UHGV virus genome: UHGV-0102213 | Direction: 5' to 3' (one strand) | Origin: a virus | DNA: 20,808 nt | In this document: in pieces, positions 14,087 through 14,838 of the stretch | Layout of the letters: every line of letters begins with the position of its first letter | Numbering within the stretch: the stretch's first letter is position 1 | Notes under the pieces: generated by a model | Told to the model about the DNA's origin: nothing | Databases searched by the model: none | What the model saw: the letters and a program-made list of their open reading frames with translations, nothing else | Made by a program: the position numbers and the translations under genes

Positions 14087-14344
14087 CTACTTCGCTTTTG
14101 CTTCCGCTCGCTTACGCCGGCGCTCTTCTTTCCTCTCGGCTTTTGCCATGTCCATGAATGCCTGCATGATCGAGTTCCGCATCATGTAGCTAACAAAGTG
14201 ATGATTGACACAGCCGTTGAGGCGCAGCTGCTCGCCAAACTCATCCACCGAGGCCAATGCTTCCATCATGCCCTTCTCGCCTTTCATGAACTCTGAGAAG
14301 TCGCGCCCCGCTCTGGAGGCGCATTCAATAACACGATCACTCAT
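14087..14344 (-). CDS. Small hypothetical protein, possibly DUF3950-like, with a Lys/Arg-rich C-terminus
   Basis: 85-aa ORF, translationally coupled to the upstream gene by an ATGA overlap. The family assignment is from memory of similar prophage annotations and is not verified. Confidence 0.45.
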   Translation of the reverse strand: MSDRVIECASRAGRDFSEFMKGEKGMMEALASVDEFGEQLRLNGCVNHHFVSYMMRNSIMQAFMDMAKAERKEERRRKRAEAKAK

Positions 14345-14838
14345 CCCGGAAGCCCGGGGATCGTAATCTGCAGCTGGTTAGCCAGGGAGTTAATCTCAGC
14401 GACCAACACTGGCTTCGTATAGCGCCATGCTGCCAGCCCTTGTCCGCAGAAGCTCGCCATGTCTTTCTTCTGGTCAAACTCATGACATTTCATGTTGAGC
14501 TGCGCACTTAAGCTGTTGCGATGCTGAAGTTCTCCGGTGAAGTAGTCATCGAGGACTTTATAGGCCGCGTACTTGAACCCGGGGTTTAACCAAGCCGCAT
14601 AATCGTAAGCAACAAACTTCCCGCCATATGTTCCACCGTGTACACCGCGCTCAGTAAAAACCACAGATTCGTGGTTTTTCTCCAGCTCGGCTAAGAACTC
14701 TTTGGTCTGCTTGTTTCGCAGGTAGTGGTAAGGCGATTCAGATTCACTTTTACCACTGGCTTTCCACATATCAGTGAGGCAGATCATGCCATCTTCACCG
14801 ATACGAATTGGTTGATTGAAGAGGGTTAATGATTTCAT
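14341..14838 (-). CDS. Hypothetical protein, possibly KilA-N domain-containing
   Basis: 165-aa ORF (MKSLTLFNQPIRIGEDGMICLTDMWKASGK...). Sits at the Rz-cos junction where lambdoid phages carry cargo genes. The domain call is from recall and is not verified. Confidence 0.45.
   Translation of the reverse strand: MKSLTLFNQPIRIGEDGMICLTDMWKASGKSESESPYHYLRNKQTKEFLAELEKNHESVVFTERGVHGGTYGGKFVAYDYAAWLNPGFKYAAYKVLDDYFTGELQHRNSLSAQLNMKCHEFDQKKDMASFCGQGLAAWRYTKPVLVAEINSLANQLQITIPGLPG

Follow-up and report, generated by a model that had tools for sequence, protein, structure and literature searches.

Our analysis suggests, with a probability of roughly 0.55, that the region between the lysis genes and cos of UHGV virus genome UHGV-0102213 is an allele of the accessory rha locus, in the form of a portable cassette in which a Bro-network gene and its small partner stand behind a structured leader, with the two products acting as regulators. 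The window is the whole stretch of DNA that was analyzed, 20,808 nucleotides in length. The functions that we infer for the two proteins come solely from their domain families. The genes themselves are not new; the labels "KilA-N protein" and "hypothetical protein" have long stood for them in the records of HK97, HK022, HK620, and Stx phages. What the comparison adds is that P22 rha, the KilA-N genes of HK97 and HK022, and the Stx-phage genes are joined as one exchangeable cassette at the old rha locus, that the 85-aa gene is linked both to Bro-network partners and to the T5orf172 nuclease lineage, so that a role in DNA targeting alongside its partner can be put to the test, and that a covariation-supported pseudoknotted RNA, absent from Rfam, precedes these genes in several textbook phages. 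Rha reportedly inhibits the growth of phages when the host lacks IHF. A leader that governed translation or processing would account for the tolerance of potentially toxic regulators and homing endonucleases within the most heavily transcribed phage operon, and would offer a handle on this 30-year-old rha/IHF phenotype.

Gene pair and flanking DNA

The two genes and the hairpins next to the small gene, both read from the sequence, are as follows.

14341-14838, minus strand: ORF of 165 aa, upstream gene of the pair
14087-14344, minus strand: ORF of 85 aa, downstream gene of the pair
14345..14358, minus strand: local hairpin CCCGG-GCUU-CCGGG, directly 5' of the 85-aa AUG
14056..14079, minus strand: weak hairpin AAAGCC...GGCUUU, just 3' of the 85-aa gene

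The original prediction had described two co-oriented, overlapping ORFs of these lengths between Rz and cos, and ORF coordinates, sequence, and surroundings all agree with it. The stop codon of the 165-aa ORF overlaps the start codon of the 85-aa ORF in an ATGA at 14344-14341; both lie on the minus strand, as do S, R, Rz, Nu1, and A; Rz/Rz1 (15040..15492) is found on one side of the pair and a lambda-like cos on the other. Nu1 starts at 13543, and we take cosN to lie at about 13721-13732 from comparison with the left end of lambda. A likeness to lambda bor had also been drawn, and it holds for position and for nothing beyond position: comparison with close relatives indicates that an opposite-strand ylcI/ybcV block, now deleted here, formerly lay between the cassette and cos.

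The CCCGG-GCUU-CCGGG hairpin was seen with the ORF11CD3-type junction only, and it would fit termination-reinitiation as the way in which the 85-aa gene is started. The AAAGCC...GGCUUU hairpin lies inside a DNA block common to HK620 and HK97 and may mark the 3' end of the cassette; the DNA shared with HK620- and HK97-type phages stops at about 14049.

A KilA-N allele of the rha locus

Two domains make up the 165-aa protein, each matched above the cut-off of its family: KilA-N (PF04383) at the N terminus (residues 9-101, profile positions 8-106 of 107; 57.6 bits, cut-off 23.8) and ORF11CD3 (PF10549) at the C terminus (residues 109-161, profile positions 1-54 of 54; 50.5 bits, cut-off 25). A KilA-N-like domain had been named tentatively, and correctly, for this protein; ORF11CD3 had gone unnamed, and the parallel naming of DUF3950 for the 85-aa protein found no match. 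Sequence comparison makes the 165-aa protein a Bro-network protein, the equivalent of HK620 hkbK and 1717 gp49. DNA binding by the KilA-N domain is reportedly known from relatives only. Such binding in relatives of the 165-aa protein is also described in PMC8585504.

Several lines of evidence place the cassette at the rha locus. Within the late operon it comes straight after Rz/Rz1, ahead of the packaging genes. Its leader is found, 99% identical over about 100 nt, upstream of the rha genes of P22, BTP1, and related phages, the homology to P22-type loci ending about 13 nt before the AUG. Read from the start that is consistent with the leader, P22 Rha consists of pRha (Phage_pRha at 80 bits) and ORF11CD3, and its ORF11CD3 domain shares 35% identity with the one in the 165-aa protein (E 1e-8); the start of P22 "ORF201" probably lies 69 nt further downstream than annotated. 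The Phage_pRha N-terminal domain is absent from the 165-aa protein and KilA-N stands in its place; we therefore read the window cassette, on homology, as a KilA-N allele of the lambdoid rha locus and not as encoding a Rha-family protein.

Searches for other functions gave little. PADLOC returned a weak, KilA-N-level match of residues 60-90 to the candidate system PDC-S22 (E 1e-8) and QatB at 0.02. With just these two matches, membership of the pair in a defence system was rejected, and we found no pointer to the anti-defence role that had been proposed for it. The Pfam search recognized no nuclease domain in either protein, and neither has a sequence-related solved structure.

A stand-alone homolog of a nuclease-linked domain

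The 85-aa protein belongs to PHROG 875 (E 3e-54). DUF3950 was absent at E<=1 in Pfam and unmatched in NCBIfam, and this identity was discarded; the one Pfam/NCBIfam match at E<=1 was a sub-threshold hit to YqzE (13.8 bits, cut-off 27). The protein is related to a 161-aa fusion protein of PHROG 4284, the C terminus of which carries T5orf172 and MUG113, both above their cut-offs. The N-domain of that protein is 41% identical to residues 3-68 of the 85-aa protein (E 6e-16), and the two PHROGs cross-hit, the 161-aa protein matching PHROG 875 at E 7.8e-13. By sequence, the 85-aa protein is thus the stand-alone homolog of the N-terminal domain of a T5orf172/MUG113 (GIY-YIG-superfamily) protein.

The predicted structure consists of three helices and a basic C-terminal tail (pLDDT, 82.6), and a fold search with this model gave only generic helical bundles, none of them significant (best E, 1.7 in PDB and 0.6 in BFVD). 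A deep homolog search found 21 representatives, many of them fragments, among 1.84 billion proteins, and of 185,579 species-representative genomes only 3 carry the gene, one of the three being an obviously mis-binned contig. The search brought no functional lead. Across genera, 9 positions are invariant and 8 near-invariant.

A conserved pseudoknotted leader

Upstream of the 165-aa gene lie three structured elements.

14986-15008, minus strand: T1, intrinsic-terminator hairpin AGCCTCGC-GAT-GCGGGGCT followed by TTTTT, just after the Rz stop and at the 5' edge of the cassette
14961-14978, minus strand: H2, hairpin ATGCGT-ACCGCA-ACGCAT, with a T-run at 14954-14959
14846..14946, minus strand: long imperfect hairpin of about 95 nt

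T1 was read from the sequence and also appears in the MFE fold, H2 was listed by an automated scan and folds likewise, and the long hairpin was obtained from the MFE fold and a covariance model. The two terminator hairpins predicted upstream of the pair are therefore present, each with its T-run, and they form part of a conserved leader of ~170 nt. A hairpin with a T-run precedes the leader in all contexts inspected but RothC, and in 271 of 351 unique leader segments by a strict scan. The T-run behind H2 is a feature of the window's leader variant; the H2 stem is conserved (96% of cells paired).

In the long hairpin, an anti-SD sequence, ACCUGC (14941-14946), pairs with GUAGGU (14846-14851), the site of the SD of the 165-aa gene. 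This hairpin has an MFE of -48.7 kcal/mol (z = -3.14), the leader architecture is the same in 16 variants, and covariance model R1 scores 95 bits at 14836-14954. In alignment A4, which was fitted to the model and so is biased toward structure, as alignment A5 is not, 81% of cells are paired compared with 70.3% after shuffling, and 88 cells show double changes compared with 30.7. The H2 loop (CCGCA, 14967-14971) is complementary to an internal loop on the 3' side of the long hairpin (GUGCGG, 14871-14876). In this helix 88.6% of cells are paired, compared with 81.5% after shuffling and 21-59% when slid; four of six pairs have changes on both sides, and the two loops covary over at least 10 sequence classes, for which a permutation test was also run. 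Covariation thus supports both leader helices and a pseudoknotted fold. G-U pairs are frequent on the gene strand, which indicates that the RNA is read in the direction of the genes. A three-way junction closed by GAACC/GGTTC, considered earlier as the leader fold, was replaced by the single long hairpin after all variants had been folded.

No family in Rfam 15 matches the leader or any of eight related loci, and the C4 and isrK covariance models gave nothing at the gathering score and nothing at E<=5 in 13500-15600. There is roughly an even chance that the element is a new cis-acting regulatory leader common to P22, HK97, HK022, HK620, and Stx phages. Its predicted effect on the SD differs between types. 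In the window's leader, the SD has an unpaired probability of 0.01, compared with 0.30 for a shuffled leader, and among 32 diverse leaders the mean predicted value is 0.34, compared with 0.46 after shuffling; several W- and K-subtype leaders reach 0.4-0.6. Sequestration of the SD as a universal property was accordingly rejected, and it holds for just three types, that of the window, that of HK620, and E. Since occlusion is not universal, what has been conserved in the leader may be some role other than translational repression.

Distribution and changing partners

The pair is present in 389 of 5,426 complete E. coli genomes (about 7%), and it lies downstream of Rz in PhiR49_1, Stx phage 1717, and HK620. 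The same two genes precede three unrelated packaging modules (lambda Nu1/A, an HK97-type HNH gene with TerS, and the HK620 pac terminase), and two further genome positions, between tail genes and after mnt-arc-ant, bring the total to three. The proposal that this is an accessory module in a mosaic hotspot is borne out by these positions; a packaging-related role, considered because the pair lies beside cos, was rejected on the same observations. A literature search returned no relevant paper for hkbK or for PhiR49.

The 85-aa gene always stands immediately behind a Bro-network gene, in at least four partner architectures (KilA-N+ORF11CD3, KilA-N+P63C, pRha+ANT, and pRha with an unknown domain), and the junction is either a 4-nt overlap or a 2-nt gap. 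Among 80 IMG/VR loci, the overlap of 4 nt was found in all 80, 76 having the full 165-aa partner and 4 a partner of variant length. One Klebsiella phage backbone carries an identical small protein behind either partner, and homology to HK97-type phage DNA begins 15 nt inside the 85-aa gene. In two contexts the small gene and a Rha partner lie downstream of mnt-arc-ant, a position that fits an antirepressor-type role. The dependence is one-sided: P22 rha has the leader and no PHROG 875 partner, and 46 of 82 distinct KilA-N genes behind the leader have no 85-aa partner gene, which indicates that the Bro protein can work without the small protein.

Expression and alternative explanations

The original prediction saw no convincing promoter for the pair, and a sigma-70 scan of 13400-15600 likewise found no promoter-like site on the gene strand; other promoter types were outside that scan. 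No promoter-like site is conserved among the homologous leaders, in some of which -10-like hexamers occur without conservation. The HK620 type shows a sigma-70 candidate (TTTCAC-17-TATTAA) in whose spacer H2 could serve as an operator; this was set aside as a general feature, the -10 not being conserved in P22, phiEt88, or Midgardsormr38. Judged from sequence alone, the stretch from T1 to the long hairpin might still hold a promoter that is weak or not of the sigma-70 type. With no promoter of its own, an intrinsic terminator upstream, and its RBS in a stable hairpin, the pair does not match the moron or lysogenic-conversion module that had been envisaged; it is most likely a late-transcript accessory cassette with throttled translation and not a lysogen-expressed moron.

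Lambda Q renders RNA polymerase resistant to intrinsic terminators. In the model that we favor, the cassette would be promoterless and transcribed only by Q-modified late RNA polymerase reading through T1 and H2, and unmodified polymerase, as in the lysogen, would be halted ahead of it. The folded leader would then hold translation of the 165-aa protein low on the abundant late mRNA, and the leader probably limits the output of the two proteins. P1 KilA and Rha, relatives of the 165-aa protein, are harmful when overproduced. The 85-aa protein would be made only by ribosomes terminating at the overlapping stop codon and would therefore be kept in a fixed low ratio to the 165-aa protein. The two would act jointly late in infection as DNA-binding, antirepressor-like regulators of other resident elements or of the host, the 85-aa protein serving as a targeting or DNA-binding partner like PLE CapR, and the cassette would be dispensable for phage growth. 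RNA-seq or dRNA-seq data exist for BTP1, which carries the leader, and the transcriptome paper mentions nine ncRNAs (PMC7067206).

The same cassette might be selfish, a mobile unit of leader and ORF derived from homing endonucleases in which both proteins are nuclease-less remnants or targeting domains of little benefit to the phage. We consider this unlikely, even though the leader is not regulator-specific and stands directly before homing-endonuclease-type genes (HNH_3+AP2) and a T5orf172/MUG113 gene, the N-domain of the leader-borne T5orf172 protein being the homolog of the 85-aa protein. Further observations in its favor are that an HNH gene is inserted in the KilA-N gene of Dewey and of L013, tandem cassettes occur, three genome positions are occupied, and copies L094, L011, and L012 are decayed. 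In addition, the Bro network resembles homing endonucleases (PMC10111431). Against this reading stand the lack of a recognizable nuclease domain in either window protein and the high conservation of the 85-aa protein, which is intact in hundreds of genomes and hence appears to be under selection for function. Mutual gating between phages would be another use for the leader, which might then be a previously uncatalogued riboregulator. Its kissing loop, in at least 10 specificities, would do more than stabilize a fold: it would set RNA types by which co-resident or coinfecting phages recognize one another's transcripts in trans, each gating the translation or processing of Bro-network and homing-endonuclease genes in the other. 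In such an RNA immunity or compatibility system of the late operon, comparable to P1 c4 or P4 CI, the protein under control would have the 85-aa protein as its DNA-targeting partner. We hold this to be highly improbable.

P1 KilA is lethal on expression, and the pair could be imagined as a kil/anti-kil unit in which the KilA-N protein kills or shuts off the host and the coupled 85-aa protein moderates or neutralizes it. Gene order, tight coupling, and the small second gene do resemble toxin/antidote layouts, and elaborate translational throttling suits a toxic product. This is nevertheless distinctly improbable, in that the small gene follows unrelated domains (KilA-N or pRha; ORF11CD3, P63C, or ANT) to which a specific antidote is hard to match, P22 Rha and many KilA-N genes manage without it, and its homolog is the N-terminal domain of a nuclease-type protein and not an antitoxin family. 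A moron made in the prophage, which would exclude or abort other phages like BstA or counter host defence, is in our judgment very unlikely. Morons are known to occur where the lysis genes meet the packaging genes, and close relatives have ylcI/ybcV there on the opposite strand, and the weak PADLOC match to PDC-S22 would suit such a role, as would the KilA-N-like N-domain of BstA (PMC8585504). Yet the search for promoter-like sites was negative, the pair is immediately preceded by one or two terminators, the SD is buried in the window's variant, the orientation is that of the late genes, and every context lies inside late or ant-type operons; both the BstA C-domain and a match to the BstA model are absent, and the cI-bstA operon lies elsewhere (PMC7067206).

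Comparison with known systems

Set beside known systems, the rha-type regulatory cassette that we favor shares with BstA-type systems only the KilA-N part: PADLOC gave no BstA match, and the 165-aa gene lies in the late operon and not with the repressor gene, as BstA, with its KilA-N-like N-domain (PMC8585504), does in the cI-bstA operon (PMC7067206).

P1 c4 and IsrK are examples of RNA control of Bro-network genes, and our leader resembles the P1 c4-icd-ant, P4 CI/seqA in eta, and Gifsy-1 IsrK-orf45-anrP arrangements in that a hairpin loop pairs with a complementary site elsewhere in its own transcript, ahead of an antirepressor or Bro-type gene; as in the C4/isrK systems, the paired sequences vary between element types and a terminator is included. 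The resemblance is functional only. H2 is about 18 nt long with one loop of 5-7 nt, whereas C4-type RNA is a processed molecule of ~77 nt with two loops; the terminator of our leader lies before the pairing partners and not after them; and the pairing of H2 is known here from covariation within one transcript. PMC10111431 covers P4 as well as how the Rfam C4 and isrK profiles are used.

The likeness to RBS hairpins of T4 concerns output. In T4 I-TevI, e, and soc, such hairpins limit translation of read-through transcripts, and transcripts that start at a promoter within the hairpin can be translated. In the window, too, a stable hairpin holds the SD of an accessory gene in a heavily transcribed operon, as in T4 for nuclease and accessory genes; unlike T4, no internal promoter was seen in the leader, and the kissing hairpin has no T4 counterpart.

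For the small protein, the nearest parallel is PLE CapR, a small DNA-binding repressor of transcription that is a stand-alone homolog of the N-domain of T5orf172-type proteins, which resemble homing endonucleases (PMC8096241). The 85-aa protein stands in the same relation to the 161-aa T5orf172/MUG113 protein, a likeness of domain relation. CapR has cysteines, which were tested for DNA binding in a C43/46/72/74S mutant (PMC8096241), whereas the 85-aa protein is predicted to have three helices and a basic tail.

Within the lambdoid phages, rha of P22 (ORF201) and phi80 is like the window cassette in its slot after Rz/Rz1, its leader, its ORF11CD3 C-domain, and its standing as a nonessential accessory gene, and P22 rha differs in having a Phage_pRha N-domain in place of KilA-N and in lacking the PHROG 875 partner. 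HK97 p60/p61 and HK022 share the small gene (DNA identity, 88-98%), which there stands behind a KilA-N + P63C partner whose KilA-N domain is only 23% identical, and a 2-nt gap replaces the overlap. HK620 hkbK/hkbL and Stx2 phage 1717 gp49/gp50 are the same two genes, with 94-97% DNA identity and the same overlap.

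Results

The late genes of the window, a lambdoid prophage, lie on the minus strand, and the gene pair under study follows Rz.

Late-gene region of the window
16426-16641, minus strand, holin gene S
16071-16421, minus strand, DUF1327 gene (142.6 bits)
15474-16007, minus strand, endolysin gene R
15040-15492, minus strand, Rz
15093-15305, minus strand, Rz1
Rz to 165-aa ORF, minus strand, gap of 201 nt
14341-14838, minus strand, 165-aa ORF
14087-14344, minus strand, 85-aa ORF
Between 85-aa ORF and Nu1, about 350 nt of noncoding DNA and a lambda-like cos
12998-13543, minus strand, Nu1
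11098-13023, minus strand, terminase A

The original prediction of two ORFs with an ATGA overlap, two T-run hairpins in the gap 3' of Rz, and no convincing promoter agrees with what we found, including the lack of a sigma-70-like site on the gene strand; its description is thus correct except for one family name. The 165-aa protein contains the suggested KilA-N domain (residues 9 to 101) followed by ORF11CD3 (residues 109 to 161), both well over the Pfam cutoff; the 85-aa protein, which had been likened to DUF3950, matched no family in Pfam or NCBIfam and belongs instead to PHROG 875, of unknown function. The DUF1327 gene, placed between the holin and endolysin genes, resembles ydfR of prophage Qin.

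The pair is real but ordinary, and many records already contain it. It occurs at 94 to 99% DNA identity in the related phage PhiR49_1, many Stx phages (gp49/gp50 in 1717; also in 2851), HK620 (hkbK/hkbL), and Salmonella P22-like phages, and in these it is always behind Rz, but ahead of three differing packaging modules. Among 5,426 complete E. coli genomes, 389 carry it, with the annotations "KilA-N domain-containing protein" and "hypothetical protein." The PHROG 875 family is narrow (138 clusters at 90% identity, Enterobacterales wherever named), with 21 representatives among 1.84 billion proteins and 57 phage records. A 4-kb contig labeled as a Candidatus Nanosynbacter MAG (JARKOR010000234.1) has a leader that scores the same against the model as the window's, together with a small gene of 99% identity; it almost certainly comes from an enterobacterial phage and was misbinned into a Saccharibacteria MAG.

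About 920 bp of PhiR49_1 are missing from the window at 13784-13868, namely an opposite-strand YlcI/YnfO-family gene, ybcV (DUF1398), and the 5' portion of a third small gene. A plus-strand 58-aa ORF (13833-14009) is a chimera keeping the 3' end of that 53-aa third gene, so that a deletion scar is what separates the cassette from cos. Just upstream of Nu1, a long and nearly perfect inverted repeat (13558-13632; AGAAAGGAAACGACAG ... CUGUCGUUUCCUUUCU) gave weak miRNA-like Rfam matches, and we take it to correspond to the lambda cosB terminase-binding repeats, not an RNA gene.

The roughly 200 nt 5' of the first gene, aligned from all contexts, move with the cassette. The same leader stands ahead of rha (ORF201) in P22, BTP1, and relatives, 99% identical, with homology between the window and P22-type rha stopping about 13 nt 5' of the AUG. 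From the start consistent with the leader, P22 Rha is a 178-aa pRha+ORF11CD3 protein whose C-terminal domain is 35% identical to that of the 165-aa protein. The locus of the cassette is the rha locus, and we put the probability of this identity, and of the anatomy as a whole, at about 0.85. The annotated rha start of P22 lies inside the conserved leader (position 39575 of record NC_002371, versus about 39644 for the leader-consistent start; 1846 versus 1915 in our comparison locus from that record). The latter start is preceded by GAAGG, and its product, beginning MNELIANH, has both domains intact; the start is probably misannotated in P22 and relatives.

Genes behind the leader (211 distinct leader-plus-ORF instances; counts hinge on the patterns scanned and do not reflect natural frequencies)
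pRha+ORF11CD3: 73
KilA-N+ORF11CD3: 46 (27 with the small gene)
KilA-N+P63C: 36 (9 with the small gene)
HNH_3+AP2: 17
ANT type: 6
P22_AR_N+ORF11CD3: 4
Midgardsormr38-type Rha: 2
Others, including a T5orf172 fusion: 27

The type of protein is not tracked by the type of leader, and some phages have tandem leader cassettes. In comparison locus L042 (leaders at 1523-1638 and 2891-3009), P22_AR_N+ORF11CD3 precedes KilA-N+ORF11CD3, and in L080 (519-628 and 2893-3009) HNH_3+AP2 does so. A fourth genome position of the leader is found in Klebsiella phage RothC (1491-2104 of its locus), where a leader without T1, the terminator, lies right behind two tRNA genes downstream of Q and ahead of an HNH_3+AP2 homing-endonuclease-type gene, itself before the holin gene.

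The small gene also has other partners. In HK97, HK022, and the mEp phages it follows, at 88 to 98% DNA identity, a KilA-N+P63C protein that is only 23% identical to the 165-aa protein in the KilA-N part, and HK97-type DNA homology with the window starts 15 nt inside the small gene. Klebsiella and Enterobacter siphophages carry the pair between a DUF6246 gene and the tape-measure gene, with an identical small protein behind KilA-N+P63C or KilA-N+ORF11CD3 on one backbone; in Rouxiella and metagenomic contigs, the small gene follows pRha+ANT or pRha+unknown, downstream of a mnt-arc-ant block. Wherever the sequence extends far enough, the two genes either overlap by 4 nt or lie 2 nt apart. Such constant adjacency, across four partner architectures and three genome positions, suggests that the small gene is functionally tied to its partner among the Bro-network proteins (KilA-N, pRha, ANT, P63C, or ORF11CD3 type) rather than linked by chance.

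In Erwinia phage Midgardsormr38 (1632-2425 of its locus), a Rha-type gene preceded by this leader overlaps, once more at ATGA, an unrelated 69-aa ORF downstream that lacks a Pfam family; such other small genes may fill the same role. The KilA-N gene is shortened to 149 aa in locus L013 (3006-3453), and an HNH endonuclease gene is annotated within the cassette region of Escherichia phage Dewey, which suggests homing-endonuclease insertion into the cassette. Decayed copies (Leclercia locus L094, 3009-3258; L011, 3519-3561; L012, 3250-3998) retain a recognizable small gene next to a frameshifted or truncated KilA-N gene.

The leader comprises T1, a canonical terminator (found by a strict scan in 271 of 351 unique leader segments), H2, a short GC hairpin, and an imperfect hairpin of about 95 nt that ends at the Shine-Dalgarno (SD) sequence or takes it in. 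All 16 sequence variants adopt the same fold, and a covariance model built from them found the leader at 35 places among the loci collected at that stage. In an alignment fitted to that model, 81% of long-hairpin cells were paired (70.3 ± 0.9% when shuffled, 0/500 as high; slid controls, 35 to 50%), with 88 double-change cells (30.7 ± 5.6; 0/500) and compensatory change in 16 of 28 pairs (11.8 ± 1.7; 6/500 as high). G-U pairs are frequent, which puts the RNA on the gene strand. The loop of H2 complements an internal loop on the 3' side of the long hairpin, and these two loops covary.

H2 loop and internal loop by leader type (L, numbered comparison loci)
Window, P22: CCGCA, UGCGG
HK620 and Enterobacter/Klebsiella (E) types: UCUCAC, GUGAGA
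H2-type leader class (L024, L384): UCGCA, UGCGA
HK97: UUCUCG, CGAGAA
SPN3UB: UUCCCC, GGGGAA
phiEt88, Hafnia and Erwinia phages: UUCUCC, GGAGAA
L285: UUCACC, GGUGAA
L391: CCCCAC, GUGGGG
L327: CUCGCA, UGCGAG
L281: GUCGCA, UGCGAC
L198 (loop as extracted for the permutation test): CCGCAAU, AUUGCGG

In a plain MAFFT alignment of 32 diverse leaders, fitted to no structure, the H2 stem plus kissing helix was 88.6% paired (81.5 ± 1.1% shuffled, 0/500; slid controls, 21 to 59%), and four of six kissing pairs had double changes; permuting 56 loop combinations gave a mean complementary run of 3.64 nt versus 2.74 ± 0.12 (0/2000). No Rfam 15 family matched the window or eight related loci. In the window, an anti-SD ACCUGC pairs with GUAGGU, and the SD is predicted to be unpaired with a probability of 0.01 (0.30 when the leader is shuffled). 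Not every leader occludes its SD in this way, and several subtypes are at 0.4 to 0.6. We think it somewhat more likely than not that the leader functions as a regulatory RNA.

Discussion

Q-modified RNA polymerase ignores intrinsic terminators, and the downstream head genes depend on the same read-through. The cassette would be transcribed solely within the late transcript, other polymerases being stopped at T1 and, in the window's variant, at H2 with its U-run. The folded leader would hold down translation of the first protein on a very abundant late mRNA, and the second protein might be made by termination-reinitiation at AUGA; a local hairpin flanks the start of its gene. Both products may be Bro-network DNA-binding regulators of the antirepressor type, which fits the Rha and small-gene pair seen behind mnt-arc-ant; this assignment of function is tentative.

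Among rival readings, a selfish cassette of homing-endonuclease descent seems unlikely, and a kil/anti-kil pair more unlikely still. The original prediction was right in spirit in calling the pair an accessory module, but the anatomy gives no support to its moron or anti-defense leaning, and we consider a moron or defense gene expressed in the lysogen improbable. What is gained is the placement of the pair at the rha locus, the tie of its small protein with proteins of the Bro-network and T5orf172 kinds, and a pseudoknotted leader RNA, so far uncatalogued, that several model phages have in common.

The AlphaFold model of the 85-aa protein (pLDDT 82.6) has three helices, the last long with a basic tail, and no significant fold match in PDB or BFVD. 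The survey of genes behind the common leader yielded a 161-aa protein whose first 68 or so residues are 41% identical to it (E = 6e-16) and whose C terminus is T5orf172/MUG113 (GIY-YIG superfamily); this protein belongs to PHROG 4284, which cross-hits the 85-aa protein, and itself matches PHROG 875 (E = 8e-13). Judged by sequence, the 85-aa protein therefore stands alone as a copy of what is, in a nuclease-type Bro-network protein, the N-terminal domain. It resembles in this respect CapR of PLE, a DNA-binding transcriptional repressor that is likewise a stand-alone N-terminal domain of T5orf172 homing-endonuclease-like proteins (PMC8096241), and by this analogy it would be a DNA-targeting partner. 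Control of Bro-network genes by RNA is known from other cases, as for P4 CI in eta and the Rfam families C4 and isrK (PMC10111431); the leader RNA of the window differs from these.
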